Positions 23,456 to 51,101 of a stretch of 53,977 bases of DNA are shown in pieces. Below the pieces are notes generated by a model, which was not told where the DNA came from, searched no databases, and was given only the letters and a program-made list of their open reading frames with translations. This stretch comes from Candidatus Woesearchaeota archaeon (GTDB lineage: Archaea; Nanobdellota; Nanobdellia; SCGC-AAA011-G17; GW2011-AR17): the NCBI GenBank assembly GCA_043818535.1, contig JBDRFS010000057.1, forward strand, positions 1 to 53,977, read 5' to 3'. The position numbers were made by a program, and so were the translations under genes. Numbering within the stretch: the stretch's first letter is position 1; each line of letters begins with the position of its first letter.

Positions 23456-23728
23456 GTTTTAGAGATTAAAGCTGGGAGTTTATTAAGATTTGTATAATGC
23501 ATGTTATATGTTGGCTTGGAGGGGCTGTCGCCTAGATGGGAAGTGCCATATTTGTCCCCAAAAGCTTAATTAACATCTTCTATGTATGTCATAATTGTCC
23601 TGGTAAGAGCCGGGGCCACATGCCAACCCATTATGGCCGCAGCAAGCGGTTATAAAATACAGCCGCAACACTTGGTAGCCTAGGCGAAGAGCTGAAGCGG
23701 CAGTGCTTACAAGAATGGGCTGGCTACT

Positions 23729-23816
23729 GAGGGCGGCTTCGCTCAACTACAATAATGGGCAATTCCATATTAATTGCAACAACAACATGAACAATAATGG
23801 CCGTTCCCGCGCAATG
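23729..23816 (+). repeat. DGR template repeat (TR), 88 nt
   Basis: GAGGGCGGCTTCGCTCAACTACAATAATGGGCAATTCCATATTAATTGCAACAACAACATGAACAATAATGGCCGTTCCCGCGCAATG. It is AAC/AAT-rich, with about 29 A by my count. It aligns without gaps to both VRs, and every mismatch falls on a TR adenine. Confidence 0.92.
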
Positions 23817-23844: not shown

Positions 23845-25428
23845 ATGATGAGACACTCTTCCCTATGGAAAGGACTTTGCTCATACGAGAATTTGGAAGT
23901 GGCTTTCAACAATGCAAGGAAGCACAAGACACTTAAGCCCTATATTATTAATTTTGAAAAGAACCTGAAAGAGAACCTTCTTAAGCTGCAATTAGGGCTG
24001 TTGTTCCATATATATGGGCCTCAGCCATTAACCACATTTGTAATTCAAGACCCTAAGACTAGAAAGATAAGCAGGTCAGACTTCAGGGACAGGATAGTGC
24101 ATCATGCCTTGTGCAATGTAATTGAGCCCATATTCAATAAGAGTTTTATTTTTGATTCCTATGCAAACAGGATAGGAAAAGGTTGCCTTAAGGCAATAAA
24201 GAGATTTGGCAGTTTCAAGCGCAAAGTCTCAAGGAATAAAAACAGGAAATGTTTTGTGCTTAAGGCAGACATAAGGCATTATTTTGAAACAGTCAACCAT
24301 AATATCCTGCTCTATCTCATAAAAAAGAAGATTAAAGACAAGAATGTTCTGTGGCTGATCAAGATAATTCTCTCTAATTATAATTCCAAAAAAGAAGGCG
24401 TGGGAATGCCTCTTGGTAACCTTACCTCACAATTCTTTGCTAACCTTTACCTCAATGAACTAGACCAGTATGTTAAACATAAGCTCAAGATAAAATATTA
24501 CATAAGATATGTAGATGACTTTGTCATACTTCATACTTCTAAGGATGTTCTTGAAGAATATAAAAGAGAGATTAACAATTTCCTTAAAAGAAATCTTGAG
24601 TTGGAATTGCATCCAGACAAATCAAAAGTTCTTCCTTTAGAAGCAGGAATCTCATTCTTAGGCTTCAGGATATTTTACTACCACCTGCTTGTCAAGAAAA
24701 AGAATGTTGACAAATTTGAAAGGAAATTTCAGGACTTCAAGAAAAGATTTGCCAAAGAAGATATTGGGCGCGATGAAATAATTGACAGCTTTCAGGGCTG
24801 GATGGCATATATTATGCATGGCAATACTTACAAGTACAGAAGGCATCTCACAAAGCTATTGAATCATACTTTTCCAGCAGAAGTTCCACCCCAAAATAAA
24901 AAGCAGGAGAATCTTGAAAAAGCTGTAGCGGTTAGTGAGATGGAATTTTCGACCCAGAAAACCTTGAAGTTATTCAAAGAGGGTATGGGAATTTCACAAA
25001 TAGGAGAAAAAAGAGGGATTAAAGAAGCAACAGCATGGAAACATCTTGCAAAGCTTATAGAGCAAGGGCTGCTGAGTGTTTATGATGTTCTTCCCCAAAA
25101 GAAAATAAGGAAAATCCAGTTTAAGATTAAGAAAGAGGCCGAAAGTTTAGAAGTCATAAAAGCAAGGCTTGGCAACTCATTCTCTTATGCTGAAATCCGG
25201 TGTGTTATTGCATCTGTTAAACATAGAAACAGGAAGAGAAGCATAAGCAGTCTTGTGAAGTGGTACAGGAAGGCATATTGCTTAAGAAAATGTAGCGAGG
25301 ATGCTTCAACAAAAAGGGCTTGCTGGGCAAAGCTTAAGGAGTTTTCAGAAATTAATACATTTCTACAACTTCCAAGCCGGAAGTTCTTAAAATTGATTAG
25401 AAAAGATATGGATATTTGTTGCCTTTAG
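23845..25428 (+). CDS. DGR reverse transcriptase with a C-terminal HTH-type extension
   Basis: RT motifs are LGNLTSQ (the DGR-type I/LGxxxSQ), RYVDDFVIL (YxDD) and a thumb-like FQGWMAYIMHGNTY. About 170 extra C-terminal residues contain GISQIGEKRGIKEATAWKHLAKLIEQGLL, which resembles helicase-associated HTH (HTH_40-like) domains. Confidence 0.93.
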   Translation: MMRHSSLWKGLCSYENLEVAFNNARKHKTLKPYIINFEKNLKENLLKLQLGLLFHIYGPQPLTTFVIQDPKTRKISRSDFRDRIVHHALCNVIEPIFNKSFIFDSYANRIGKGCLKAIKRFGSFKRKVSRNKNRKCFVLKADIRHYFETVNHNILLYLIKKKIKDKNVLWLIKIILSNYNSKKEGVGMPLGNLTSQFFANLYLNELDQYVKHKLKIKYYIRYVDDFVILHTSKDVLEEYKREINNFLKRNLELELHPDKSKVLPLEAGISFLGFRIFYYHLLVKKKNVDKFERKFQDFKKRFAKEDIGRDEIIDSFQGWMAYIMHGNTYKYRRHLTKLLNHTFPAEVPPQNKKQENLEKAVAVSEMEFSTQKTLKLFKEGMGISQIGEKRGIKEATAWKHLAKLIEQGLLSVYDVLPQKKIRKIQFKIKKEAESLEVIKARLGNSFSYAEIRCVIASVKHRNRKRSISSLVKWYRKAYCLRKCSEDASTKRACWAKLKEFSEINTFLQLPSRKFLKLIRKDMDICCL

Positions 25429-25620
25429 AATTGGAAAATGAATTAATTTTGGCAGCCGCAATATAGGTGGATAGCTTTAGCTTAGAAGATTTGCTTAGGG
25501 TGGAGCGAATGGGGCGCTGCGTGCTAAGCCCTGCTGGAGCTTAATAGTTTTCCGGGCATTTCTGCGTAGCCATTCAAGAAAAAATTTGCGACAGCCAAGC
25601 CCCCCTCACACATCCCACCC

Positions 25621-27210
25621 TTAGGCGGCTTCGCCGCTGGCGGTCGCTTCGCTCCCTAGCACTGCGCGGGAACGGCCATCATTGCCCAAGTTGAGGTTGC
25701 AACTAATACGGAATAGCCCACTATCGTAGTAGAGCGAAGCCGCCCTCTCACGCATTTCACCCCTACTAGTATAAGTATCATCTGAAAAAGGTGGAGTCCA
25801 AACCTTAATGTCTTTTTTAGGCTTGTCACTAATTACTTCAAAAACATCAGTTATTTCTTCTTTAGTATCTTCAGTGCCTAACAAAGCATGGAAAAAATAC
25901 AAGCCCTTGTCCTGGATTAAAACAGTTTTCAAAGGAATATCCAAATATTCAGGTATATCCAAGTCAAGAGGCTGCTGCTCCCTGTCAGACCTATAGTTGT
26001 GGATTATCCTTGAGTTTTCATTATCAGAATTATACTGCAATCTAGTACTGCTCAGCAGCAACCTAGCCTTAAAATCCTTTCTCACAGAATCCAATAAGGT
26101 CCGATTAGCATCCTTATCAGCAGCTATCTGCTTAAACACTTGGTAAAGCTCTGCCATTGAAGGGAACCGCCTTCCATCCTTGACATCGTTCCAGTATTCT
26201 ATCCATTGGTTTTGGGTTTTATATTTTCCATTTTCAGCAGCAACATCATCAAGTGTCAAGATAACAGATGGACTCTTAACGGGTTTTGCAGGCTTATCAT
26301 CTATTACATCTATGCCTAACTTCTCTTTCATCTCTTCAACAAATTTCTTGCCAAAATTGTAATGAGACTTTATGAAACCAGGCTTGATATTCTTCTCTAT
26401 CTTTTCATTAAGCTTCTCAACAGCATGATTAGCAAAAAAGTCAAATATATTCACATCAATTATGGCATCGCCTGTTTCCCTTAAAAGAACTCTTGTTTTC
26501 TTTTCACCTTTTTCTTCAACTACAGTAACATAAGGAAATTTGCCTTTAATTTTAGAATAAACATTCTGCGGGAGGTCAACATAAAGTGCGCCAAGCTCCT
26601 TAAGCCTCTCAATAAATTCAGGGCTTCCAAGATTATTGCCGCTTAATGCTATCCCCAAACCATTGCCAAGCTGGTCCATATAGCCGTTAAACAAATAGTT
26701 CATTACAAAATCTGTCACAATAGGGTCATCCAAGCCAGATTCTGATAAAAGGCTGTTGAAAGGAAGGATTGTATCATAAACTTCCTCCTTGTCATCTCCT
26801 GCATAAAGATATTTTAATCCCTGGAATATGTGATAAGACTGGCTTGTTGAAGTAAAGTTATCCTTTAATAAAAGAATAGTTGCCCTATCAAGAGAGTTTT
26901 TAAAATTAGGCTGCCTTTTCTCCCAAAAGCTGTCCTGAATATCATCATATCTTAAAAGCAAAGGGTCACGGCCAACATACTGCATAGATTTTGAAGCGTG
27001 CTGATTGGCATTAAACTGCTTCAACTGAGGCTCAAGGCATGAAGCCAACTCTGAACTAAAGAGCAAATAATCTAACTTAATACCATCATCCTGCTCCATA
27101 TTACTTAGACATTCTCTCCTTAAAGCTTCCATAGTTTTAACTATCTTAACTAGATTCTTCTTAACATCAGTATCCTTAACCTCTACTGTAAGTTTGTTGG
27201 GAGCCTTCAT
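25621..27210 (-). CDS. DGR variable protein 1 (C-terminal VR, putative C-type-lectin-fold ligand-binding domain)
   Basis: 529 aa. The C-terminus ...RAASLYYDSGLFRISCNLNLGNDGRSRAVLGSEATASGEAA* contains VR1. The last ~190 aa are homologous to the N-terminal ~190 aa of variable protein 2. There is no signal peptide or TM segment. Confidence 0.9.
   Translation of the reverse strand: MKAPNKLTVEVKDTDVKKNLVKIVKTMEALRRECLSNMEQDDGIKLDYLLFSSELASCLEPQLKQFNANQHASKSMQYVGRDPLLLRYDDIQDSFWEKRQPNFKNSLDRATILLLKDNFTSTSQSYHIFQGLKYLYAGDDKEEVYDTILPFNSLLSESGLDDPIVTDFVMNYLFNGYMDQLGNGLGIALSGNNLGSPEFIERLKELGALYVDLPQNVYSKIKGKFPYVTVVEEKGEKKTRVLLRETGDAIIDVNIFDFFANHAVEKLNEKIEKNIKPGFIKSHYNFGKKFVEEMKEKLGIDVIDDKPAKPVKSPSVILTLDDVAAENGKYKTQNQWIEYWNDVKDGRRFPSMAELYQVFKQIAADKDANRTLLDSVRKDFKARLLLSSTRLQYNSDNENSRIIHNYRSDREQQPLDLDIPEYLDIPLKTVLIQDKGLYFFHALLGTEDTKEEITDVFEVISDKPKKDIKVWTPPFSDDTYTSRGEMRERAASLYYDSGLFRISCNLNLGNDGRSRAVLGSEATASGEAA
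25660..25747 (-). repeat. DGR variable repeat 1 (VR1)
   Basis: The reverse complement aligns to the TR over 88 nt with 13 mismatches, all at TR adenines (hand alignment). Confidence 0.92.
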
Positions 27211-28187
27211 TTTTCATCACCAGCTTTAATATCTTCAAATGCTTCAACATCGTCAAGTGCTTCACCTTTTGAGTAAAGACTAAGATGAGCATAAACAGGG
27301 TGAAGGAACTTTTCAACAGCTTCAAGCTTCTCTGCTGTGCTTCTGTCCTTGCATAATATCTTGGCAACTCTGGAATCAAGGTTTGGAACTTCTCCGCTGT
27401 CAAAAACTGCTGACAGCACATACCTCTTGCCATAAAAGCAAAATATGGCTGTATACTTATTGAAGTTTCCTATTTCCTGAAGATTGCTGAAGCACACAGA
27501 CTTGGAAGTCTTGTCTATTTGTGATTCAAGATTAAAAGGCAAGCCTGAATTTTTTTTGCGTCCACCAACCCGCCCTTTGGCGGCTTCGCCGCTGGCGGTC
27601 GCTTCGCTCCCTTGCACCGCGCGGGAACGGCCATAATTGTTCATGATGTTGTAGCAATAAATATGGAATAGCCCATTATTGCAGTCGAGCGAAGCCGCCC
27701 TCACAGGATTGCTATTTCTACTGCCTTGAGAAGGTGTCCAAATCCTAAGGTTATCCTTATTCTTGTTTCCAAGCTTTTCAAGAGCATCCATAATAGCCTC
27801 GCCCTCATCCTTAGTAAGGAAAAGCCCCTGAAAGAATCTCAAGCCTTCATCAGTATTAATAACATCCTTAATAAAGTTACCAGAACTATAGTCCGGAACC
27901 AAAATATTTCTCTTCACAGGCTCAATAACAGTACTACCATAATAATCAATAATTTCAGCATTAAGGCTTGTTGGGCTATAAATTATTCTAGTGCTTGTCA
28001 TTACCCAGTTCTCAAAATCTTCCTGAACGCTTCTCAATAATGCTTCATCACCAGACTTCCCAAGAATATAATAATCCGCAACAGAAGCCATTACTTTTCC
28101 TGCTTCATTATGCTTAGGAATCCAATTGTTCTGAGTAAGATATAAAATTTTGCTTTCTTCCATCCAAGGCAGACTATCCAAAGTCAT
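27207..28187 (-). CDS. DGR variable protein 2 (VR followed by a 123-aa C-terminal extension)
   Basis: 326 aa containing ...RAASLDCNNGLFHIYCYNIMNNYGRSRAVQGSEATASGEAA-KGRVGG... The codon equivalent to the VP1 stop (TAA) is AAA here. There are 4-nt overlaps with both neighbours and no signal peptide. Confidence 0.85.
   Translation of the reverse strand: MTLDSLPWMEESKILYLTQNNWIPKHNEAGKVMASVADYYILGKSGDEALLRSVQEDFENWVMTSTRIIYSPTSLNAEIIDYYGSTVIEPVKRNILVPDYSSGNFIKDVINTDEGLRFFQGLFLTKDEGEAIMDALEKLGNKNKDNLRIWTPSQGSRNSNPVRAASLDCNNGLFHIYCYNIMNNYGRSRAVQGSEATASGEAAKGRVGGRKKNSGLPFNLESQIDKTSKSVCFSNLQEIGNFNKYTAIFCFYGKRYVLSAVFDSGEVPNLDSRVAKILCKDRSTAEKLEAVEKFLHPVYAHLSLYSKGEALDDVEAFEDIKAGDEK
27615..27702 (-). 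repeat. DGR variable repeat 2 (VR2)
   Basis: The reverse complement aligns to the TR over 88 nt with 9 mismatches, all at TR adenines (hand alignment). Confidence 0.92.
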
Positions 28188-29113
28188 TTGTCCACCTCCA
28201 AAGGCTGAATTAAAAGCTGCGCCTCCGGCTTCTCTTTAGCAATATGTGCAAGATTAACATACATCCTAGTTAAGTTAGAATCATGCCTTCCAACTTTATC
28301 ATTCTTCTCCACCCTATAATCCTCAATCTCCTTTTCCAGCTTCTTAACATCAGTATCCAAAAACTTCTCCGTCTTTTGATGGGTAACCTTCTTCCCAACC
28401 TTATAATCCCTGTCATGCCTGTACTCAATATTATAATCAACATTGCTTTCATGCCTATACTCTTCTTTAATCTCATAATGGCTTCCAGCCCAGCATGTAA
28501 TCTGGTTAAATTCCTGAGCAGTAAGCTGTTCCTCTGTCCTCTCCTTTACAGTAACATGCTTCAAAACAGAATCGACACCATACTTCCTCACTTCATCAGG
28601 ATTCTTGTCCAATGCAATAGCAGCAATAGCCTTTGCCCTATCAGAAACAAACTTGTCATCAAGATCCAGTTCCTTTAAAGCATCCCCCTTAAATTCAGCC
28701 CTGCCAGGATCATCTTCATCCCCTTTAGTGAGCTTATTGATAAGATAAGTTTCATAAGTGTTTCTTGCAAGCACCGCCCAGTTAACGCCCTGAACACTTG
28801 TCCCATTATCCTCAACCATGCCATGCTCAAACTCTTTGACTTCATCGTAAAAATCAGCAATCTCATCCAGGGCATCATCAACATCACCCTCACCGGGATT
28901 AGCCAGATAGAACAATAAATTCTGTGGAACTAAAGTCCTGAAAGCCTTGCCCTTGTAAGGCATGTTTATCAAAGCATAGCCAAAAGGGACAGCATCAAAA
29001 TCATTTTCAACAATAATAAACTTTTTGCCCTGCCTTACAGCTTCAGCTACGTCACTGCTAGGTGTTCTCCTTAAAATAACCGCCTTCTGCCTTAACTTCT
29101 GCTCCAGGCTCAT
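28184..29113 (-). CDS. Hypothetical protein of the DGR-target operon
   Basis: 309-aa acidic ORF with 4-nt overlaps on both sides. No family recognised. Confidence 0.6.
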   Translation of the reverse strand: MSLEQKLRQKAVILRRTPSSDVAEAVRQGKKFIIVENDFDAVPFGYALINMPYKGKAFRTLVPQNLLFYLANPGEGDVDDALDEIADFYDEVKEFEHGMVEDNGTSVQGVNWAVLARNTYETYLINKLTKGDEDDPGRAEFKGDALKELDLDDKFVSDRAKAIAAIALDKNPDEVRKYGVDSVLKHVTVKERTEEQLTAQEFNQITCWAGSHYEIKEEYRHESNVDYNIEYRHDRDYKVGKKVTHQKTEKFLDTDVKKLEKEIEDYRVEKNDKVGRHDSNLTRMYVNLAHIAKEKPEAQLLIQPLEVDK

Positions 29114-30666
29114 TTTTCACCATCCGCCATAGATGTTATTGCCTTATATCCCATAACGCTGTCTCCTATATCCTTAATAACACCCCCATATTTAGCCTCA
29201 TCATTGTTGATTATGCCCTTAACTAAAGTCTTCAAAACCCTAACATTCAATTCCTGCCCATAATCTTTAGCTTGCTTGCACGCATAAAATATGTCCCTGC
29301 AAGACAAATGATCGTTGCATTTGACAAGCTCCCTAGCATCAACTTCAGGAGCATAAAGCTTCCAGATTGCTTCCTGCTCTTCTGCTGAAGGCATGCCAAA
29401 ATACAGCTTATGGATAAACCTGTCAATAAAGGGGGCCCTAAGGAAATCAGGATTATTGTCAGTGCCAATAATGTAAACTCCTTCTGGCGGCCTGCTCAAA
29501 ACAGACTGCATATAGCCGGTCTGGCTGTCTTTGTGGCTTAGGACTCCTTTTCTTTCAACAAAAGAGCTTATCTCATCAAAGCACAGCACGCAAGGGGAGA
29601 GCTGCTTGGCCCTCTTAATGACTTTTTCAGTCCTGTCCTTGCTCTCGCCAACCCATTTGCTTTCAAGTTCAGAGCCTTTAAGCAGGATAAAATTATAGCC
29701 ATATTGGCCGGCCAAAGCTTCTGCTGTAACAGTCTTGCCAGTGCCTTTGGGGCCGTAAAAAAGCATTACAGAGCCATTGCTTCTCTCAACAATGGATTCA
29801 AGCAAGGCCTTATGATAGTCATATCCTGCTAAATCACTAAAAGTTACCGCAGGCTCGATAAAAGGCATGTCCCTTATGGCAGAAGGCTTGGTTTTCTTCA
29901 GGCCATATTCCAAGTCCATATACTCAAGCTCATTCCTTTTCTCCCTTTTGGCCTTAGTGAAAGCCCTGTTAAGGACCTGCTTCAAGTCCCTGCCAACATA
30001 CCCATAGCTTACATCAGCAAGCCTCTTCAAATCTCCAACCCTAACCTTAAACTGGTGGTTGCCTTTCCTGTCAGCATGAATGCCAAGTATCTTGTATCTG
30101 CCTTCCCTGTCAGGAGGCATGAATTCTATATCCTCAGCAAACCTTGCCCTTAAAGCCTCATCCATGCTTTCAGGCCTGTTGGAAGTGGCAAGGACAAATA
30201 TCCCGCTATTGTCCTCAACACCGTCAAGCTGTGAAAGAAACAGGGTAAATGCCTGATACTGTGCTGGATCAACTATCTGCCCTCTTGAAGACATGCCGTC
30301 AATTTCGTCAATAAAGGCTATAAGCTTCTTGTCCTTCTGCAAAGCTACTCTCAATTCATTAAAAACCTGCTCTGCCATGCCACTTTTCACTAAAGCTGTT
30401 ACATCATAAAAAGGGATATTAAGCTCAGAAGCAAGAACCATGGCGCCCAAAGTCTTGCCAGTTCCAGGAGGGCCAGAAAGCAAATAATTCCTTGCACCCA
30501 TTTCAGTGCCAAAATCCTCAATATTTGTTATAACAGTTTTCAGGTCTTCAAAATCCTCTTTTAATTTGGGGTGAACATAATAATCTTCACTTTTAACCCT
30601 TAATTCAAGTGGCTTAAGCTGGCTTTTGCCTAAGTCAAGCCCTTTCTCTTTATTGACAGTTATCAT
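29110..30666 (-). CDS. Tandem (two-domain) classic-clade AAA+ ATPase, Cdc48/FtsH-like without an N-domain
   Basis: D1 has Walker A GPPGTGKT and Walker B IAFIDEIDG. D2 has Walker A GPKGTGKT and Walker B VLCFDEISS. Confidence 0.9.
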   Translation of the reverse strand: MITVNKEKGLDLGKSQLKPLELRVKSEDYYVHPKLKEDFEDLKTVITNIEDFGTEMGARNYLLSGPPGTGKTLGAMVLASELNIPFYDVTALVKSGMAEQVFNELRVALQKDKKLIAFIDEIDGMSSRGQIVDPAQYQAFTLFLSQLDGVEDNSGIFVLATSNRPESMDEALRARFAEDIEFMPPDREGRYKILGIHADRKGNHQFKVRVGDLKRLADVSYGYVGRDLKQVLNRAFTKAKREKRNELEYMDLEYGLKKTKPSAIRDMPFIEPAVTFSDLAGYDYHKALLESIVERSNGSVMLFYGPKGTGKTVTAEALAGQYGYNFILLKGSELESKWVGESKDRTEKVIKRAKQLSPCVLCFDEISSFVERKGVLSHKDSQTGYMQSVLSRPPEGVYIIGTDNNPDFLRAPFIDRFIHKLYFGMPSAEEQEAIWKLYAPEVDARELVKCNDHLSCRDIFYACKQAKDYGQELNVRVLKTLVKGIINNDEAKYGGVIKDIGDSVMGYKAITSMADGEK

Positions 30667-31426
30667 TTTCTCCTCCTAAAAATTCGCATTTGCTTGCTTC
30701 ACCCTTAGGGTTTATATACTTTTTCAGTCCAAAATCAGCAAGGCACTTTTTGGCCTTCCTAATGCCATAAGCCTGCTCCAAGGCATAACAGTTATTTGGG
30801 CGTATCAAAGGTGACTGTATCATTCCCTTGTGCTGCAGGCTTTCAGCCAATAGCAGGCCCCTTAAATTATCAACCTTCCCTTCACTTAAAAGCTCCACAT
30901 CTTTGCCGCAGCCCACTGGAAAAACAAGATTGACACGGACAGGCAGGCTTAAGCTGTAAGACAAGCCAAGGATTTCCGGAACATTGTCAAAATTATCCCC
31001 ATATATTGAAGATGTTAGAATCACATTATATTCTTTTTTCATTCTCTCTATATTCTTAACCACTTTAGTAAAAAAAGGCCTTTTGGTAATATGTTCATAA
31101 AGTTCAGAGCTGGCTGCCGGAAGTGAAACCTGCAAGGTTATTTTATCTTTTACTCTTGATTCCAAGCCAAGCAAGCCTTCAGGAATAAACACCGCATTTG
31201 TGGAAACATTAACATCCCTGCCATTACCTGCTATTTGCAACAAAACATCCAGAATCTGCCTGTGCATGAAAGGCTCCCCGCCGCCAATCTCAACAGTATC
31301 AAAATTAGGATTAGACTTGACAATATCCATAATCTTTTCTGCTGAAAGCTCTGCATCATTCTGCTGATAGCAAAATGCGCATTCAAGATTGCATGTGCTG
31401 TTTATGTCTATTGTCAGGATCTTCAT
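30650..31426 (-). CDS. Radical SAM enzyme (small, no recognisable SPASM/accessory domain)
   Basis: Contains CNLECAFCY (CxxxCxxC) at residues about 12-19 and a GGGEP SAM-binding motif. It is the first cistron of the operon and overlaps the AAA+ gene by 17 nt. Confidence 0.85.
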   Translation of the reverse strand: MKILTIDINSTCNLECAFCYQQNDAELSAEKIMDIVKSNPNFDTVEIGGGEPFMHRQILDVLLQIAGNGRDVNVSTNAVFIPEGLLGLESRVKDKITLQVSLPAASSELYEHITKRPFFTKVVKNIERMKKEYNVILTSSIYGDNFDNVPEILGLSYSLSLPVRVNLVFPVGCGKDVELLSEGKVDNLRGLLLAESLQHKGMIQSPLIRPNNCYALEQAYGIRKAKKCLADFGLKKYINPKGEASKCEFLGGENDNCQ

Positions 31427-31466
31427 TTTATCACCATAAAACTTACAAACATGAAGCCCTGAAACC

Positions 31467-31474
31467 TATATAAA
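31467..31474 (-). promoter_or_regulatory. Candidate TATA box for the radical SAM/AAA+/VP operon
   Basis: The minus strand reads AAAGCTTTATATAGG about 41 nt upstream of the ATG at 31426. Confidence 0.3.
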
Positions 31475-31533
31475 GCTTTTGGTGGCGTTGCTACCAGTGA
31501 GTAGCACATAAGGTGGTTTTATTGGGCATAACT

Positions 31534-31579
31534 CAAAAAATACAAAACAAAAGAAACAGCCCGGCTGCCAAAAAAAAGC
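31534..31579 (-). terminator. Recurring T-rich 3'-end element (copy B)
   Basis: The transcript strand after the lon stop reads GCTTTTTTTTGGCAGCCGGGCTGTTTCTTTTGTTTTGTATTTTTTG. Confidence 0.3.
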
Positions 31580-33442
31580 TTACTTGATCTTCCTCAGAAT
31601 ATGCATCTTGCCTTTCCACACAAGAGCCTGCCCAAGAACTTCCTTTATTGTGGATACAGGTATTATCTTAATGCCTTTCAGCTTCTCCTTGCTTATGACC
31701 AAGTCACCCTCGTTTGCCCGGGGGATTATTACTCTTTTTATGCCAGCATCTATTGCTGCCTCAACCTTTGCAGTAACTCCTCCAACAGCAAGAACCCCCC
31801 CCCTGACGGACAATGACCCAGTCATTGCAGTATCCTGCCTGACAGGGATGTTCTTCAATGCCGAGATGATTGATGTTGCAACAGCTATTGAAGCTGAGTC
31901 CCCCTCCACGCCCTCATAGGTCTGTATGAATTGGGTGAATATGTCATACTTCTCTCTCAAATCTTCTCCAAAGTATTTGAGGATAATTGCAGAAACGTTC
32001 TTTATGGCCTCTTTTGCTATTTGTCCCAGCTTTCCAGTGGCTATGAACTCAGTCTTCTTGCCTCCAGGCGTAACCTCAGACTCTATTGGAAGGACTATGC
32101 CTGAATATGCTGAGCCGCCCCCTATAACTGCCAGCCCATTAACCCTGCCCACCATGTTGCCGGTCGTCACTATTACCTCATATTTCTTCTTGTTTTCTAT
32201 GTAGCGGTCAGCCAGCTGCTGTTCTAATGGCCTAGCCAGCTTCTTTGCCTTAAACACGTGTTCCTTAGTGACAATCTTCTTGCCATCTTCTAATGCTAAG
32301 TCACCGGCCGCCCTCACCAATCCCCCTAGCTCCCTCAGCCTGACAGTAAGCTTGCCCTTTGTTGAAGCCATTTTTCTTGCATACTCTATTATTGCATCTA
32401 CAGCATCCCGGTCAAAATGGGGGATCTTTCCGTCCTTAGTTACTTCCTGAGCAACGAATATGGCTAGCTTATCCCTGTTCTCAAGAGTGTTGTCCATAAG
32501 GGTGTTCATGTATATCTCATAACCATAGCCCCTTATCCTTGAACGTAATGCAGGGTGCATTTTCTGTATTGTTTCCAAGTTACCTGCCGCTACCATGATA
32601 AAGGCTGCAGGAACAGGCTCAGACCTTGTCATGGCTCCGGAAGAGCGCTCAGACTGCCCTGTAATAGGATACTTCTTCTCTTGCATTACAGACAACAGCT
32701 CTTGCTGGGAATGCGGGTTTAATGTTGCCACCTCATCTATGAAAAGTACGCCACCATTTGCCCTGTGAATCATGCCAGGGATAAGGCGCAGGTAAGCCGG
32801 AGTTCCTAGACCGCCAGACTGCAGTGGATCATGAAGTACATCCCCTAGAAGGCTCCCAGCATGCGCCCCGGTAGCATCTATAAAAGGGGCTTTCTTCACC
32901 TTTGAATTATCTATCAAAAGTTTTGGCACTTTAGCATTTGAAGATTGGTTAGTCCTCCTGTTGATGTTTATGAATAGCATAAAGCCAAGAACAAATACCA
33001 CGCTTGTAATCATGGAGGCAGCATACACAATTGGGCTGTCAAAAGGGAATATCTTTCTGGAATAGAAATAATAAGGGAGCAAAGTGGCTATGACCACGAG
33101 TATGAGCATAAGGATGTTGATGTTCCTTAAAGAGCCAACAGCCTGCAGCTTGGCCCTTGTGACAATTTCCAAGCCTTGTCCACGGGGCATTGTCCTTACA
33201 AGCGGAATATTGTCGTCCGCAAGGTTAGGAAAAGCCAGAACATCTAGGAGCCTCTCATTTGGCAATAATTCAGCCAATCCCAGCCCAAGCATGCTCTTGC
33301 CAGTTCCAGGGTCTCCTATGAGGAGGACGTTTCTTCTCTGCCTGGCGGCCTTCTTGATTATGTTGACAGCTTCCTCCTGGCCAATTACCTGGTCAACAAC
33401 CCTTTTTGATACCTTTATGTCTTTAGTTGTAGTAAATTTCAT
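31580..33442 (-). CDS. lon: Archaeal membrane-bound Lon protease (LonB)
   Basis: Contains GDPGTGKS (Walker A), two TM helices inserted in the ATPase domain and the proteolytic site [11 protein letters not shown]. Confidence 0.93.
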
Positions 33443-34094
33443 TGCAGATAGTTTATGTTATAAGGCATCAGATATTAAAAGCTTACTGTTGTAAGTTCCT
33501 TCTGGTTAGCAGCTGGTTTGTATTGCGAAAACTCTATTTCTGGCTCTTTTAAAATTATAAGTTCAGGCCGAAGAGACCGCTGCTTCAGCTCGGCGATGAA
33601 AGGCCTCTGCCGCAAAGCGGCACAATGTTGCCTGTTTTTCTTACCTCTTTAGAGTGAGGCTCAGCCAGAAACCCGAACTGTTTCTTCTTGGAAGAATGGC
33701 TCAATACTCCGAAAATTAGCTACTTGACACCACTTGACATGTGTGCGCGCAGCACTTATAAAGTCTTTTTCTTTTTAATCAAGAGTAGTGAGATATTGTA
33801 ACTCAAAAGCGTGGGTAGTGCTTACAATATTGATGCAGGCAGGATAGCAATCATGGTCCAAAGCTAAGGCTTTTGCTCCTTGTGGAACCGTGTTCCTTTT
33901 TTGGGGCAGGAGGCTATGGAAAGATGCTCATTGCACCGCAATGCTTTGTGATGGGTGGGTGCGACCTGAATCAACAGGTCATTAGGATGACCGCGCCTTA
34001 GATGCGGATGATCTCACTTAAAAGTGGGGGAGCGCATAACTCAACGGCTATACTGAGGCACCGTGCCTTTAGGCCGTGAGAGGTCACTTTGTTC

Positions 34095-34365
34095 CAACCA
34101 ACCCTTGAGCGGCTCCGCCGCTGGCGGTCGCTACGCCCCCTTCACTGCGTGGGAAAGGCCATTACTGTTCATGCTAAAGTATGCAATAAATATGGAATTG
34201 CTCACCATTGTAGTTGAGCGAGGCCGCCCTCTCAGACCTTTCAGCCTGCGCCATATAGATATCATTTGAAAAATGTGGTGTCCAAAGCTTAATGTCCTTT
34301 TTTAGCTTGCCACCAATTACCTCAAAAAATTTAATAATCCCATAAACAGAAAACAAAAGAAGCAA
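34095..34365 (-). pseudogene. Decayed 3' fragment of a DGR target gene (VR3 remnant at 34133-34221)
   Basis: It encodes ...KKDIKLWTPHFSNDIYMAQAERSERAASLNYNGEQFHIYCIL*, homologous to the VP1 tail. Relative to the TR, the VR has a 1-nt insertion, an in-frame stop and several non-adenine substitutions. Confidence 0.75.
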
Positions 34366-46133: not shown

Positions 46134-49100
46134 TCAAAACCACTTATTCAAGCCTTCCTGCCTTTCCTCATCCACACCAAATACAGAATCAATCCTACTT
46201 TTTGTAAGTTCCAAACTCTGCTGCAAGTAAGCAGGGAGATTGTATTTCTTTGCTAGGTCAATTGCCGGGACCAGATACTTCTTGATAGATCCCTCAGCTA
46301 TTGTGAATATTAATTTTCCTCCGCATTTAGTGCACTTGCCTGACAATGGAGGCCTCCTGTATATCTCGTTGCAGCCAACACAGCGGAATGACTGCATTGA
46401 GAACTTCCTTAAATTGCCTTTTATGTCCCTCATGAAGTGCCTTTCTATGACTAGCCTTGCAACATCATCCACATCAACAGCCCTTATCTTCTCCCCTATC
46501 CTCATCTGCCCCAGTACCTTCTCCTGCATTGACGGGACAATCTTGTATGAACTGCACCTAACCCCCCCATTTATATCTGAAGTGTTGTGGGTAAACCCCA
46601 TGCCCTCGTACTGTTTCTCTGTGCCAAGGTAATTTCCAAGCTGGCTTATCTTTATATCCCACGGCTGCTTGTATTGTTCTGCAGCCTCATAGAACTCCAA
46701 GGGATACTGCCATGCAACATCCATGTTGAACACCATGTCGTCAACTTCTGAGGGAATCAGCTTTGATGTTAACACCAGCGGGGCATCCTGGGTGGCTCCC
46801 CTTGTGTTTGGAAGGAACTTCTTTGAAAAATTTAACAAATGGTCCATTAAGAGCATTACAGCCGCCTCATCGCCGTCGCACTGAAAAGTAAGCATATTAT
46901 TTGGGAAGATTATATGGCCTTCAACGTTAAGGCAATATGTTTCGTCTTCTCCATCTGGAGTAATTGCAATAACCTCCGGGAATGCAAACTTCTTATCATG
47001 CCTGATCCTCATTCCATTTGGGCGTGTATTTTCTACGAGATGCTTCAAAATGTTTTGTTTCCTTTTTAATCCAAAACCTACTTCTTTGAAAAATTTACTA
47101 ACATATGTGCTGGGGACAATGAGTTTTGTTATTTCAAATTCAGGAATGGGCATTTTTTTCCTAACATAAAATTCACGCACTTTTGGTCCTGGCTTTTTCT
47201 TATAAGTATACTTTTTAGTGTAAATCCCATACCTCCCCAAGCAAACCTCCAACCCAGATAGAAGCTCATCACTAACTGAATCACAAGCAACCCTCATGTC
47301 GCTGCTGCTCACCGAGCCATCACCATCATAATAACCCCTAAGGAAGTGTTTTACTTTTCCAATCGGGAGGGAAAACATTATAGGGGGCAATCTCTTTTCA
47401 TGGGCATTTCTTCCACAACCTAGGATGTCAACAAATAATTCATACAGTATCCTGCTTGAAAAGACAATATGCTCCTTACTAATCCAGCTTGGGTTCAAAC
47501 CAAAGTTTTTGTAGAATATATCAATCACTTTTTTCCTCAGAACGTCCTCTGTTGCTGCAAAATCTACCTGGTAAAGGCCATTCTTGCTTGTATTCTTCCT
47601 TGCGTAACCTTCAGCAACATAAAAACCCAATGCCCAAAGGACATCTTTATTTAGTTTTATTACTGGCTTAAGGTTAACATTATCTCTTTTTGCTGCGATT
47701 TTTGCCTTGCCCAAAGAAATCTTCTGTCCAGCTATAAAGGAAAGGCCATATAGAAAATCAATCGGGAAGCTATCTCTCAAGATAAAATTATCCAGATCAC
47801 ACTTAGAAATTTTAATTCTTCTCCTTGTCTCAGTCCTTCCCCCTAAACTATCCACTACTTTAGCTACTTGTTTAGAAACTCCCCTAACCATAATGTCTTT
47901 TCTTCCTTTAAAAATTTTAAAAAGATTTAATTCCTTAATATCCCTCTCCTTAACTTTAATAGTAGTAGGAGTTATAAGCTTATCCTTAACTTTGAGTTGG
48001 GAGGCTTTTTTCTCTACAAATTCTTCGCCTTTTCCAACAACACAAAACTTATGGTCCTCTGTAACACGTATTTTTCTCCCGCCTTCAAGTGCTAATTTAA
48101 GAATTTTGCGACTCTTGTGTTTTGTAAAATCAACTATGCCAACCTCTTCAAGCTGTTTTGTTTTTTTATTAAGCCCGAGTGTTTTGAAGCCTTTTACTTT
48201 TATGGCCTTGGTTCCATAAGAATCTACCATTTTTTTAGGATTAAGTTGTTCAACAAGCTCCCCAATCTTGAACATTTTCCAATTTGTTCCATCAAAAATT
48301 GGAAGCCTGGTTTCATAAGTTAAACAATCCCTACGCATAATCGAATGCAAAAGCGGATGCGCCAGGAAGCCCTGCGTCTTGGAGAAGCCTATGATCCTGC
48401 AAACTATCCCTGCTGATGTATGCGGGGACATAGCCACACAAAGATGGCCCACAAGGCCTTTTGAGCTTTCAAGCTTGTAATAGGGATTAAGCCCATATAG
48501 CCTTTCAAGCAAATCGTCAATAAACTTAGAAACCTTAAATAATGCCTTGTCCGCACCCTCTTCCAATGCTTCTGGGCATGCCGGCAATATTATGTCCTGT
48601 GCCCTGATCTCTACTATCTGCCCTGCGCTAGCAAGCGGCTTGCCGTAACAGTCCTTTGTGTAACCCATCTTATTTAATTCCTTCACGGGTGTCCCAATCT
48701 CTGAAGGCTTGAAGTGGGTGCAAGCCATTTCAGTCATGTCATACCTGGTTGTGCCGTCCTTGTTAACATAAACATCGTGCCTTGCCCTCAAGATGCCTTT
48801 GAGGAGATGTTCCGGGACATGCTCCTCATTTGATGTCCCCCTTATTCCCTTTATGAGCTTAGGATAGCTTGAGCTTCCCAGCTTCTTAAGGGCATCGTCA
48901 AAGTAATCCCTTATGTTTATCTCCCCCATCCTGTAAGGGAGGCATTTGCCATGGGGCTTGTCTTCCCTCCCTATCCTCTTACATTCTTTTAAGGCCGTAA
49001 CCAGCTTGCACTGCCTGCAATAATACCTCCCCCTTGCCCTTTCCCCGCATTTAATGCATACCTTGTATATGCTTTCCTGATCACAGTCTTCACAGAAGTA

Positions 49101-51101
49101 AAGCGGGAACTGCGAGGTGATTACGCGCTTGTTGCTTTCCAACGCACATTGGAAGCTTCTCAGCCTCCCACCCTCCTTCCCTACAGGGAACAGCACCTGG
49201 GGGCTTCCGGTCATTTTCCTCATCTTAGCCTTTTCAGGCCTTCCCATCCTGCCACCTATGAAAGTGCCCAGCTTATCCTTTATCTCAATCCCAGAAAGCT
49301 TGTTTACTGCTTCTAGGGGGCTACTGAATTTAGGCAGCTCCTTCTTGCCATTTGCAAGGGAGAACGCAAAGGCATCCGCATCATCATTTTCAATTATTAT
49401 GAACTCATTTGAGGCTACAGAGTGCTCTATCCCAATAAGCTCAAGCGCCCTCTTCACCTTAGGGTCAACACCGGGAATAACCACTTTGCCTTCACTTATC
49501 ACAGAATTAGCTATCGTCTTGTAAAGGTTTTCAAACTGCTCTGTTCCTATCGAGTTCCAGTAATAGATATACCTCGGGTGGAGAGGCGTGGAAGTGGCCT
49601 TTGCCAAGGATAATGCCTCATTGAACTTAAGAGAAGTCTTGAAAGGCTCTGAAAGCAGCTGCTTAATCTTCTTTTCACTTATTCCGGTCTTTTTCGCAAG
49701 GGATTTTTCATTTTCCATATGTTTCTTAAGGCAGAGCACCCACCACTCCTCTACAAAACCTGCAGGAACTAGCTTATGGGCCCGGTCAAAAAAGTCTCCG
49801 TAGTTTATCAGGAGGTCTCCAAGGTAAAGTATTTCCTCAACATCTTTGTTTATTTCCCTTGCCTGCTCCAAAGTCTCAACTCTTCTCACATTCCCGTTCT
49901 TGAGCCTTACAATAGGCCCATCCATTTCATCACATATAGTAAGCGTGGTGGCCTTTCCTGGCCTCTCTGTCTTCATCTGCGTGCCAATAGCCATATAGCC
50001 ATCCATTATGACCATGGATGTAGGGTGTATTGCATCAGAAGAGAATCCTGAAGTCCTAGTCCTCCCATACCTCAGCCTGAAGCCACCGTTCCTCATAGGG
50101 TAAGTGAGCACAGGCCTGCCGCCAATAATGTCCTTGATATAAGTGAAATCCGGAGTAAGCTTTTCAGCTGTGCCTTTTTTCTCCGCCCCCTTGCCTTTTG
50201 CCTTGATTTTCTTCTGCAAGTCAACGAAATCCTTAAGGAAATCCCACTGCCCTAGACCAAAGTCCTTGCCCCACTTTGAAAGCTGCTTCCAGAGCTTAGG
50301 CGCCTTCAAGCAGAGGCATTCTGCTGTCATCAGGCAGAAGCCGCTCCGTATCCTGTTAGTCTCAATCCTGTCCAAGTCCTTGTAGTTGCTCACGTCAAAC
50401 TTCTCGGAGGGGTCACCATTGATTTGCACAGGCAAATGCTTGACAAGGAACTCCACCTCTTCCTTTGAAGGGTAATACTGCAGGTTGGTTACCCTTTCAT
50501 GATAATCCGCAAGCTCAGTAACTGCCCTCTTTATCTCCTTTTCAGTTGCGTCATACTCTGCATAACCCATCTTCTTTCTCACGTAATCAGCAATCAGCGC
50601 AGAAACGCTTGCGCCTGTTCCTCCGGCACTCCTTATCGGGCCCGAGTACATCAGGCAGAAGTATTCCTTGCCATTATCCTTCCTCTTGTTAAGCCTCAAT
50701 TCCACCAAGCCTTCTATAGGAGAAGCTACCACGCCTACAGTCACGTAAGCAAACCCAACCCTTATCCCCACTTCTATTGCTTTCTTCTTATCCTCAAACT
50801 TGCACAGCTTTTCCTCGGCAACCTCTTCTGCTATCTTCAATGCAACTCTCCAATCTTGGGAGCCATACTGTTTCTCAAGCTCAGCTATCCTCTCAGGAAT
50901 ACCTTTGCCTATTATTTCAGGAGCAACAGTTGAGATAAGGCCCTCTACACGTTCTGCCATATTCTTGGCCAATGGTACTTGGACCTCGTCATCAGCATCA
51001 TAGCCTTTTGACTTTGCCTTGTTGGCTATCTCATAGGCTTCTTCCACCTCTGCATTGATCTTTGAGAAGTACTTTTCCATTTCTTCGCTGTGTTCAGCCA
51101 T
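46134..51101 (-). CDS. DNA polymerase II (PolD) large subunit DP2, intein-containing precursor
   Basis: 1655 aa. It contains the Cys clusters of DP2 and the catalytic-region motif HSIMRRD|...|CDGDEAAVMLLMD, which is split by an intein. The exteins total 1173 aa. Confidence 0.95.
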   Translation of the reverse strand: MAEHSEEMEKYFSKINAEVEEAYEIANKAKSKGYDADDEVQVPLAKNMAERVEGLISTVAPEIIGKGIPERIAELEKQYGSQDWRVALKIAEEVAEEKLCKFEDKKKAIEVGIRVGFAYVTVGVVASPIEGLVELRLNKRKDNGKEYFCLMYSGPIRSAGGTGASVSALIADYVRKKMGYAEYDATEKEIKRAVTELADYHERVTNLQYYPSKEEVEFLVKHLPVQINGDPSEKFDVSNYKDLDRIETNRIRSGFCLMTAECLCLKAPKLWKQLSKWGKDFGLGQWDFLKDFVDLQKKIKAKGKGAEKKGTAEKLTPDFTYIKDIIGGRPVLTYPMRNGGFRLRYGRTRTSGFSSDAIHPTSMVIMDGYMAIGTQMKTERPGKATTLTICDEMDGPIVRLKNGNVRRVETLEQAREINKDVEEILYLGDLLINYGDFFDRAHKLVPAGFVEEWWVLCLKKHMENEKSLAKKTGISEKKIKQLLSEPFKTSLKFNEALSLAKATSTPLHPRYIYYWNSIGTEQFENLYKTIANSVISEGKVVIPGVDPKVKRALELIGIEHSVASNEFIIIENDDADAFAFSLANGKKELPKFSSPLEAVNKLSGIEIKDKLGTFIGGRMGRPEKAKMRKMTGSPQVLFPVGKEGGRLRSFQCALESNKRVITSQFPLYFCEDCDQESIYKVCIKCGERARGRYYCRQCKLVTALKECKRIGREDKPHGKCLPYRMGEINIRDYFDDALKKLGSSSYPKLIKGIRGTSNEEHVPEHLLKGILRARHDVYVNKDGTTRYDMTEMACTHFKPSEIGTPVKELNKMGYTKDCYGKPLASAGQIVEIRAQDIILPACPEALEEGADKALFKVSKFIDDLLERLYGLNPYYKLESSKGLVGHLCVAMSPHTSAGIVCRIIGFSKTQGFLAHPLLHSIMRRDCLTYETRLPIFDGTNWKMFKIGELVEQLNPKKMVDSYGTKAIKVKGFKTLGLNKKTKQLEEVGIVDFTKHKSRKILKLALEGGRKIRVTEDHKFCVVGKGEEFVEKKASQLKVKDKLITPTTIKVKERDIKELNLFKIFKGRKDIMVRGVSKQVAKVVDSLGGRTETRRRIKISKCDLDNFILRDSFPIDFLYGLSFIAGQKISLGKAKIAAKRDNVNLKPVIKLNKDVLWALGFYVAEGYARKNTSKNGLYQVDFAATEDVLRKKVIDIFYKNFGLNPSWISKEHIVFSSRILYELFVDILGCGRNAHEKRLPPIMFSLPIGKVKHFLRGYYDGDGSVSSSDMRVACDSVSDELLSGLEVCLGRYGIYTKKYTYKKKPGPKVREFYVRKKMPIPEFEITKLIVPSTYVSKFFKEVGFGLKRKQNILKHLVENTRPNGMRIRHDKKFAFPEVIAITPDGEDETYCLNVEGHIIFPNNMLTFQCDGDEAAVMLLMDHLLNFSKKFLPNTRGATQDAPLVLTSKLIPSEVDDMVFNMDVAWQYPLEFYEAAEQYKQPWDIKISQLGNYLGTEKQYEGMGFTHNTSDINGGVRCSSYKIVPSMQEKVLGQMRIGEKIRAVDVDDVARLVIERHFMRDIKGNLRKFSMQSFRCVGCNEIYRRPPLSGKCTKCGGKLIFTIAEGSIKKYLVPAIDLAKKYNLPAYLQQSLELTKSRIDSVFGVDEERQEGLNKWF
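46881..48326 (-). mobile_element. Intein (482 aa) with a LAGLIDADG homing endonuclease, inserted in the RRxCDGDE motif of DP2
   Basis: The N-terminal junction is MRRD|CLTYETRL (Cys1 codon 48324-48326). Block B is VTEDHKF. The LAGLIDADG motifs are LWALGFYVAEGYA and FLRGYYDGDGSV. The C-terminal junction is NNMLTFQ|CDGDE (Gln codon 46881-48883 region; Gln codon at 46881-46883, +1 Cys). Confidence 0.85.

Follow-up and report, generated by a model that had tools for sequence, protein, structure and literature searches.

We analysed 53,977 nt of contig JBDRFS010000057.1 from a metagenome-assembled genome of Candidatus Woesearchaeota (this whole stretch is hereafter called the window) and addressed a minus-strand operon whose last two genes encode variable proteins (VP1 and VP2), the targets of an adjacent diversity-generating retroelement (DGR). 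The genes ahead of them encode a radical S-adenosylmethionine enzyme (rSAM), a tandem AAA+ ATPase (AAA2) and an orphan protein of 309 amino acids (aa), and these three recur, together with relatives of VP1, as one cassette in DPANN archaea. The operon and the gene next upstream, which had been correctly recognised as encoding LonB, are laid out as follows:

31580-33442, minus strand: LonB, with Lon_C and LonB AAA-LID domains and a transmembrane (TM) insert
31467-31474, minus strand: archaeal TATA box TTTATATA, the single candidate operon promoter, 41-48 nt upstream of the rSAM ATG (31426)
30650-31426, minus strand: rSAM, 258 aa, first gene of the operon
29110-30666, minus strand: AAA2, 518 aa, second gene
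28184-29113, minus strand: 309-aa protein ('unk309'), third gene and signature gene of the cassette
27207-28187, minus strand: VP2, 326 aa, fourth gene
25621-27210, minus strand: VP1, 529 aa, fifth gene

The coordinates of the five open reading frames (ORFs) agreed exactly with the original prediction, which was made from the sequence before any database search; the rSAM and AAA2 genes overlap by 17 nt, and the remaining three junctions are 4-nt ATGA overlaps. The single shared TATA box near 31467 was likewise upheld, as the minus strand of 25400-31600 contains no TATA-consensus match other than TTTATATA (31474-31467), and a purine-rich sequence resembling a B recognition element (BRE), CAAAAG, lies just upstream of this box. 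A Shine-Dalgarno (SD)-like motif (GGTGA/GGAGG) stands 5-8 nt before the ATG of each of the five genes, and a T6 run follows the VP1 stop codon. The overlaps, the motif at every ATG, the single TATA box and the oligo-T run after VP1 thus showed that the five genes form one translationally coupled operon, which we read as having its own promoter and being transcribed apart from LonB.

The DGR and the sequences derived from it are distributed on both sides of the operon:

23598-23732, plus strand: RT-16 RNA motif (Rfam RF03019), 84.1 bits against a gathering score of 50, abutting the 5' end of the template repeat
23729-23816, plus strand: template repeat (TR), 88 nt with 29 adenines
23845-25428, plus strand: DGR reverse transcriptase (RT), 527 aa, with LGNLTSQ and YVDD motifs, convergent with the operon
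25624-25659, minus strand: GC-rich element resembling an initiation of mutagenic homing (IMH) site, with a hairpin, 3' of VR1; overlaps VP1 at its final codons and stop
25660-25747, minus strand: variable repeat (VR) of VP1 (VR1), with 13 of 13 TR-VR mismatches at TR adenines
27579-27614, minus strand: IMH-like GC-rich element with a short hairpin, 3' of VR2; conserved with the VR1 flank
about 27615-27703, minus strand: variable repeat of VP2 (VR2), with nine of nine TR-VR mismatches at TR adenines
34108-34338, minus strand: decayed 3' remnant of a third VP1-like target (last 77 aa, 49% identity), in which a VR-like segment and an IMH-like element can be recognised

Because all TR-VR mismatches fall at template adenines and a DGR-type RT lies beside the TR, the DGR of the window is authentic, and the last two genes of the operon are its paralogous targets, as had been predicted. 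The RT (RVT_1, E 1.7e-23) starts 28 nt past the TR and carries a C-terminal HTH_40 domain (aa 369-455, E 2e-20). No separate Avd- or HRDC-type accessory ORF was evident in the ORF lists of the DGR region, of which the small ORFs were not individually searched. The GC-rich element is found 3' of VR1, of VR2 and of the VP remnant, and is absent from the TR. The remnant itself is frameshifted by a 1-nt insertion and also shows non-adenine mismatches to the TR.

To place the operon in a wider context, loci were gathered via the 309-aa protein, by looking up exact proteins and by drawing on GTDB representative genomes and JGI metagenomes; the 49 loci obtained were reduced to 35 groups at 95% identity, which carry L numbers below. 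The tandem AAA+ ATPase was found in 31 of the 35 groups, the rSAM enzyme in 26, and a protein with the N-terminal domain of VP1 (N-domain protein) in 28, and every missing component coincides with a contig end. Among the titled records, those that look reliable name Woese-, Pace- or Nanoarchaeota; the titles 'uncultured Methanosarcinales' (four GTDB records) and 'Candidatus Doudnabacteria' (one record) were treated as probable mislabels or binning errors. These results showed that the cassette is a conserved, DPANN-specific four-part module, and its recurrence in 35 loci places the arrangement far beyond chance. Identity to the proteins of the window ranges over 44-72% for the AAA+ ATPase, 39-70% for the 309-aa protein, 39-51% for rSAM and only 25-41% for the N-domain, and the N-domain proteins are the fastest-evolving, exchangeable component of the cassette. 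The original prediction had looked to co-occurrence of the rSAM, AAA+ and orphan trio with DGR RTs in other genomes, and this held in part: the trio recurs with an N-domain protein in every locus with enough flanking sequence, but a DGR RT is present in only six of the 35 groups (the window, L001, L002, L021, L027 and L031). In the DGR-less cassettes the same component occurs as one to six tandem paralogues, whose middle region often contains a membrane-like segment, with arrays of six in L022 (11008-20307), four in L009 (2434-9181) and three in L005 (11779-17479).

The two targets of the window are built from parts of these proteins. VP1 and VP2 share 39% identity over ~200 aa. VP1 consists of a conserved helical N-domain (aa ~1-230) joined by a poorly predicted linker to a variable domain (aa ~330-529) that ends in the VR, and VP2 consists of a variable domain (aa ~18-203) and a conserved C-terminal extension (aa ~206-326), with the VR internal to the ORF. 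VP1 ends at the GC-rich element that follows its VR; the ~120 codons by which VP2 runs on are atypical for a DGR target. In the clade of the window the variable domain is soluble and ~190 aa long, and its last ~29 codons are rewritten by the adjacent DGR. The N-domain of VP1 is common to all N-domain proteins, with R31, Y48, D89, W96 and P150 among the invariant residues, and matches the DGR-less cassette proteins at E 1e-24 to 1e-56; the C-terminal extension of VP2 is homologous to the C-termini of the DGR-less N-domain proteins. Proteins that combine all three modules (N-domain, variable domain and C-terminal extension) are also encoded, namely a 685-aa protein in L002, the 663-aa protein P0087 and the L009 paralogues. 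In contrast to these, the window divides the modules between two proteins, VP1 with the N-domain and a variable domain and VP2 with a variable domain and the C-terminal extension. The full architecture of VP2 is found in L001 (7383-8360), L002 (6576-7574), L027 (4273-5250), L031 and L041; the extension was also considered as a product of stop-codon read-through (TAA in VP1, AAA in VP2), which was rejected given the conservation of the architecture in at least five other loci. An exhaustive representative search for VP1 relatives gave 719 clusters at 50% identity, 503 of them at E <=1e-10. Variable-domain proteins of 200-300 aa that stand alone make up the majority, and the N-domain is present in ~40 of the top 150.

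A second family of targets was found in the same setting. In L021 (3191-8693) the order is AAA+, 309-aa protein, VPa, N-domain protein, VPb, rSAM, VPc, RT-16, TR and RT; the three VPs, each ~270 aa, belong to a family unrelated to the variable domain of the window, and 14-15 of 16 mismatches fall at adenines. Four paralogues of this L021 family lie among the cassette genes of L020 (9090-14092), with no RT or TR within 19 kb. Overall, VP genes are placed inside the cassette in five gene orders, represented by the window, L001, L002/L031/L041, L027 and L021. The proposed tie between the VPs and the trio was thereby substantiated, by the neighbourhood conserved in 35 loci, by the non-variable modules shared with DGR-less versions and by the second VP family interleaved in L021. 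Because the N-domain and the C-terminal extension are common to DGR-less loci, the cassette predates its association with the DGR, and the DGR was recruited to the one component that was already evolving by diversification.

The window is a single sequence, and ongoing diversification was seen in sister loci. Between L027 and L029, near-identical loci from different samples, 18 of the 26 differences over 5.6 kb lie within the VR of the VP2-like gene, and the two VRs of L027 have 12 of 12 and 11 of 11 mismatches at TR adenines. In the 90%-identity cluster P0086, five full-length variants of a 499-aa VP1 homologue show 12-14 differences each, of which 8-11 (10 in three of the four comparisons) fall inside the VR (aa 460-487). 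This VR-restricted variation in relatives of the window showed that, at loci of this kind, the DGR is active on targets of both types. The P0086 cluster also includes RT sequences of 355-365 aa, an apparent artefact of an 857-aa ORF (P0244) that fuses RT and VP.

The RT-16 motif lies directly 5' of the TR in all four DGR-bearing loci examined (the window, L001, L002 and L021); outside the window, Rfam placed it at:

L001 6963-7177, minus strand: RT-16
L002 14743-14904: RT-16
L021 7877-8048: RT-16

The published description of this motif goes no further than 'associated with RT genes'; here it has the appearance of a structured 5' portion of the DGR RNA in this DPANN lineage. The RT of the window, at 527 aa, may be compared with ~375 aa for the orthologous RTs of L001, L002 and L031.

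The enzymes of the cassette were then assigned as far as profile and structure comparisons allowed. The first product had been called a radical SAM enzyme from its CNLECAFCY motif, and this was confirmed with PF04055 (Radical_SAM), at 49.2 bits against a cut-off of 29.5, which places it in the radical SAM superfamily; the CX3CX2C motif (C12, C16 and C19) and GGGEP are conserved in the 17 aligned homologues. Three C-terminal cysteines, C213, C228 and C247, are at least 94% conserved in the same homologues, which suggests that they are candidate ligands of an auxiliary twitch-like Fe-S cluster. The enzyme falls below all curated equivalog cut-offs, the best being moaA_archaeal (62.1 against 325 bits), with viperin at 32.8 against 180 bits; it is also far below the cut-offs of SPASM maturase models, whose matches are limited to the N-terminal core.

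AAA2 has two PF00004 AAA domains (E 1.4e-49), as its predicted GPPGTGKT/FIDEID and GPKGTGKT/CFDEIS motifs had indicated, with Walker A and Walker B in both and DE in both Walker B motifs. It is closest to VAT and p97, and its best match in the PDB is VAT (5vc7, E 1.6e-58). The pore loop is degenerate in D1 (KSGMAEQ) and canonical in D2 (KWVGES). The Cdc48-type architecture that had been proposed stood as far as the D1-D2 tandem of classic AAA+ domains is concerned, but AAA2 lacks an N-domain, with only ~55 aa ahead of the D1 Walker A, lacks an HbYX tail (its C-terminus is ...SMADGEK), and scores far under the cut-off of the CDC48 model TIGR01243 (168.9 against 802.65 bits, with the match at model positions 213-667). 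AAA2 probably works as a type II unfoldase, yet is not a member of the Cdc48 family. Its secondary matches to nSTAND3, nSTAND_NTPase5, NPHP3_N and AAA_5 do not reach beyond the generic P-loop stretch. With Pfam, none of the operon proteins gave a match to vWA, VMAP or an effector domain, or a significant one to STAND. The PADLOC matches in the operon are to a generic AAA (IetA) and a generic rSAM (pVip), and those to PHROG are to generic AAA and rSAM only.

Profile searches and structure prediction of the 309-aa protein returned no known family or fold, in agreement with the prediction that the third gene would have no recognisable family. This protein (NCBI listing ABIB71_04840) has 81 homologues, and all those with a named source are from Woesearchaeota, Nanoarchaeota/Nanoarchaeia or an unclassified 'archaeon'. 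No match was obtained in Pfam, NCBIfam, PADLOC, PHROG or PDB sequences, and relaxed Pfam scans of 50 members of the family gave no recurrent match. An AlphaFold2 (AF2) model from a 50-sequence alignment reached a mean predicted local distance difference test score (pLDDT) of 80.6 and a predicted TM-score of 0.69, and a Foldseek search with it against PDB and BFVD found nothing below E 0.09. The invariant residues include H186, C207, S211, H212, H277 and D278. A sub-threshold match of two members to the 'fvmX5 FtsH ternary system' (E 0.085) was discarded as no evidence, and a papain-like protease (CWAGSHY compared with CWAFS of papain) was rejected, as the model has no papain-like fold and Foldseek found none. 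The CWAGSHY segment (aa 205-213) is near-invariant and serves only as a lead for a catalytic or metal site.

The VPs were equally isolated in searches for known folds. Neither VP matched Pfam, NCBIfam, PADLOC or PHROG, and VP1 also found no match among PDB sequences. A 61-member profile of the variable domain gave only chance-level matches in PDB and Pfam and no Pfam FGE-sulfatase, and a profile of the N-domain family likewise gave chance-level matches only in PDB sequences and Pfam. The AF2 model of VP1, built from an alignment of only seven sequences, has a mean pLDDT of 63 and is confident only at aa ~12-140 of the N-domain and at aa 330-520 in the variable domain, the latter with pLDDT 70-94; Foldseek found no C-type lectin (CLec) or other match to it in the PDB below E 0.09. 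Since neither PDB, Pfam nor Foldseek returned a CLec or FGE match, the usual label of 'CLec fold' is unproven for this DGR target family.

The surroundings of the cassette vary among loci. Genes of mobile type and for TFIIB flank it in two of the 35 groups, where TrbC-pilin, TrbL-like and VirB4/TraC-like genes stand directly beside it:

L001 12926-18533 and 19171-20052: flanking mobile-type genes and TFIIB
L002 686-6089 and 16760-19902: flanking mobile-type genes and TFIIB

This suggests that L001 and L002 carry the cassette on an integrated element of conjugative type; in L002 a tyrosine-integrase-like gene is present as well. A general linkage to type IV secretion systems (T4SSs) was rejected, as it was confined to L001 and L002 and no T4SS homologues occur in the window. 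A viral origin of the cassette was rejected as well, because IMG/VR held no relative of the 309-aa protein and no locus came from viral contigs. Other neighbours are ABC-3C genes (DUF2326, MC6/MC7) and a DNA methyltransferase in L001, a PIN/UPF0175 toxin-antitoxin pair in L006 and a Cas4/Dna2-like nuclease in L005. The patchy distribution of the cassette and these occasional defence or mobile neighbours hint at a role in conflict.

From these data we infer that the VPs would be exchangeable recognition or adaptor subunits of an unfoldase-centred machine, a reading to which we assign a probability of about 0.4. VP1 via its N-domain and VP2 via its C-terminal extension would dock on the core formed by the AAA+ ATPase and the 309-aa protein, and their hypervariable faces would bind a changing macromolecular ligand, derived from a virus or from a host. 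The D2 ring, with its intact KWVG pore loop, would then remodel or unfold the bound partner, and rSAM would act as a chemical effector or maturase. The whole would be a diversifiable recognition front-end on an ATP-driven machine for conflict or host interaction. We consider it unlikely, though worth stating, that this extends to an immune-like or host-targeting intracellular machine of an unrecognised DPANN class, in which hypervariable adaptors choose proteins for ATP-driven unfolding and radical chemistry and in which gene arrays or, in some clades, DGR hypermutation would diversify the specificity subunits. Several points weigh against the adaptor reading. The protein-protein contacts and the nature of the ligand are purely inferred, and roles for the N-domain, the C-terminal extension, the variable domain and the 309-aa protein are read from the conservation pattern alone. 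The defence-island context is weak and inconsistent, and the window and L004 are flanked by housekeeping genes. Moreover, rSAM could act on the VPs themselves, as its three C-terminal cysteines resemble those of peptide-modifying twitch/SPASM enzymes, and the membrane-like segments and anchored accessory proteins described below fit maturation or export of client proteins at least as well.

DGR targets are usually assumed to be surface-attachment proteins, and the original prediction departed from this in calling the VPs cytoplasmic. This is only partly secure: in the window a hydropathy scan found no TM or signal-like segment in any of the five operon proteins (maximum 19-residue Kyte-Doolittle mean <=1.25), but at least ten DGR-less N-domain proteins, homologues of VP1, have a TM-like segment at aa ~285-370, accessory proteins of L004 (L004_360 and L004_420) and L006 (L006_366 and L006_293) have N-terminal hydrophobic anchors, and the Trb/VirB4-like genes adjoin the cassette in L001 and L002. 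We therefore also consider, as the main alternative and one only somewhat less probable, that the N-domain proteins, including VP1 and VP2, are cargo and the N-domain a leader or handle. Under such a scheme, rSAM might modify the cargo, and AAA2 with the 309-aa protein might unfold it, insert it or extract it at the membrane; the final location of the VPs could be the envelope or the cell exterior, where they would serve as hypervariable ligand binders for attachment to a host or partner, in line with the classical view of DGR targets in DPANN archaea. The membrane features just listed speak for it, as do the resemblance to the logic of ribosomally synthesized and post-translationally modified peptides (RiPPs), with a conserved N-part, a variable C-part, tandem 'precursors' and an rSAM with three auxiliary cysteines, and the expectation in the literature that DGR targets of DPANN archaea serve host interaction (PMC5006420, PMC8632793). 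However, the window has no membrane component of the cassette besides having no signal peptide or TM segment in its operon and no T4SS homologue, T4SS genes are near only two of the 35 loci, and no peptidase or transporter typical of RiPP export was found.

The remaining explanations fared far worse against the comparative data. A role for LonB had been suggested, in which proteins bound by the VPs would be passed to the AAA+ ATPase and from there to LonB, to be degraded; it draws on the position of LonB, adjacent upstream on the same strand, and on the decayed VP remnant on its other side. However, LonB adjoins the cassette in only one of the 35 groups, that of the window, and it is a housekeeping protease universal in archaea. 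Directly after its stop codon comes a T8 run, a terminator of its own, upstream of the operon promoter with its own BRE and TATA box, and the start of LonB lacks the SD motif, unlike the five operon genes. LonB is outside the operon and has a weak bpMoxR match. These results showed that LonB is a bystander, and we disfavour Lon-coupled degradation as very improbable. The possibility that the DGR and its targets were inserted by chance beside an unrelated rSAM/AAA+ operon is essentially refuted. It could appeal to the mobility of DGRs, which are often near transposons in DPANN and candidate phyla radiation (CPR) genomes (PMC10907252), and to the resemblance of the L001/L002 region to an integrated element, with the integrase of L002 and TFIIB in both; however, VP1 and VP2 share domains with DGR-less cassette proteins, 4-nt overlaps join VP genes to cassette genes, VP genes lie inside the cassette in all five of the gene orders given above, and two unrelated VP families are each embedded in it.

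The concept of DGR-diversified, cytoplasmic, NTPase-coupled sensors is not new. Such sensors, coupled to MoxR-vWA ('VMAP ternary') or STAND NTPases, have been proposed in multicellular bacteria (Kaur 2020 PMC7159879; Dore 2024 PMC10907252). As in those systems, the DGR of the window diversifies what would be the ligand-binding domain of a mostly cytoplasmic protein, the target is genetically wired to a P-loop/AAA+ NTPase and putative effectors, and radical SAM proteins are effectors in some FtsH ternary systems. In contrast, the ATPase here is a tandem Cdc48/VAT-like AAA+ of the classic clade, vWA, VMAP and recognisable effector domains are missing, the variable domain cannot be recognised as FGE/CLec, the host belongs to the DPANN archaea and not to the multicellular bacteria, and most occurrences of the cassette are DGR-less. 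The cassette shares the logic of NTPase-linked DGR systems and none of their defining components. AAA-fused CLec targets are reported to be the commonest architecture of DGR targets in CPR (Paul 2017 as cited in PMC10907252). As far as these are described in PMC10907252 and PMC5758913, they resemble the VPs in belonging to ultra-small symbionts, in the link of the DGR target to an AAA ATPase and in the lack of an evident export signal; they differ in that the ATPase here is a separate double-ring protein of the operon, and rSAM and the 309-aa protein are obligatory partners. Several unclassified VR types have been noted in CPR and DPANN targets (Wu et al., PMC5758913).

Comparison with individual proteins gave a similar mixture. 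AAA2 is like Cdc48 and VAT in its D1-D2 classic AAA+ domains, in its best PDB matches (VAT and p97) and in the aromatic pore loop of D2, but it lacks their adaptor-binding N-domain and proteasome-docking HbYX tail, and its D1 pore loop is degenerate. Nanoarchaeal AvpA and other CLec DGR proteins (Paul 2015; Handa 2016 PMC5006420) are likewise DPANN targets that bear the VR at the C-terminus and lack a signal peptide and a known function, whereas neither sequence nor Foldseek comparison related the VPs of the window to AvpA, TvpA or Mtd, and the VPs carry cassette-specific, putatively docking modules. The rSAM/SPASM-twitch RiPP cassettes also place an rSAM with extra conserved cysteines beside tandem genes with a conserved N-part and a variable C-part; however, the 'precursors' here are 330-690 aa long, no leader peptidase or transporter is present, and an unfoldase and an orphan protein form the core. 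No description of the cassette was found in the full-text DGR literature, although the supplement of Paul 2017 may already mention it.

Here two DGR targets belong to a conserved machine that mostly occurs without a DGR and whose partners are defined, which leads to testable hypotheses on binding, modification and unfolding. Paralogue arrays and retroelement hypermutation can be compared in it as two natural ways to diversify one component. The 309-aa protein, the N-domain, the C-terminal extension and the variable domain each define a protein family that is uncharacterised, and the idea of NTPase-coupled, DGR-diversified sensors, proposed for multicellular bacteria, is extended to minimal symbiotic archaea.

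Some further features of the window were noted. The VP remnant lies on the far side of LonB, and LonB is bracketed by DGR-target sequences. The ~650 nt between LonB and the remnant (33443-34107) hold no ORF longer than 46 aa, and this interval gave no Rfam match and no tblastn similarity to cassette proteins. Farther along, a PolD small-subunit-like gene (DNA_pol_E_B/Metallophos/OB) and a Cdc6/Orc1 gene (region 51104-53793, minus strand) are followed directly downstream by a 1655-aa ORF (46134-51101, minus strand); this ORF is possibly the PolD large subunit, long enough for an intein, and the region is possibly near a replication origin.

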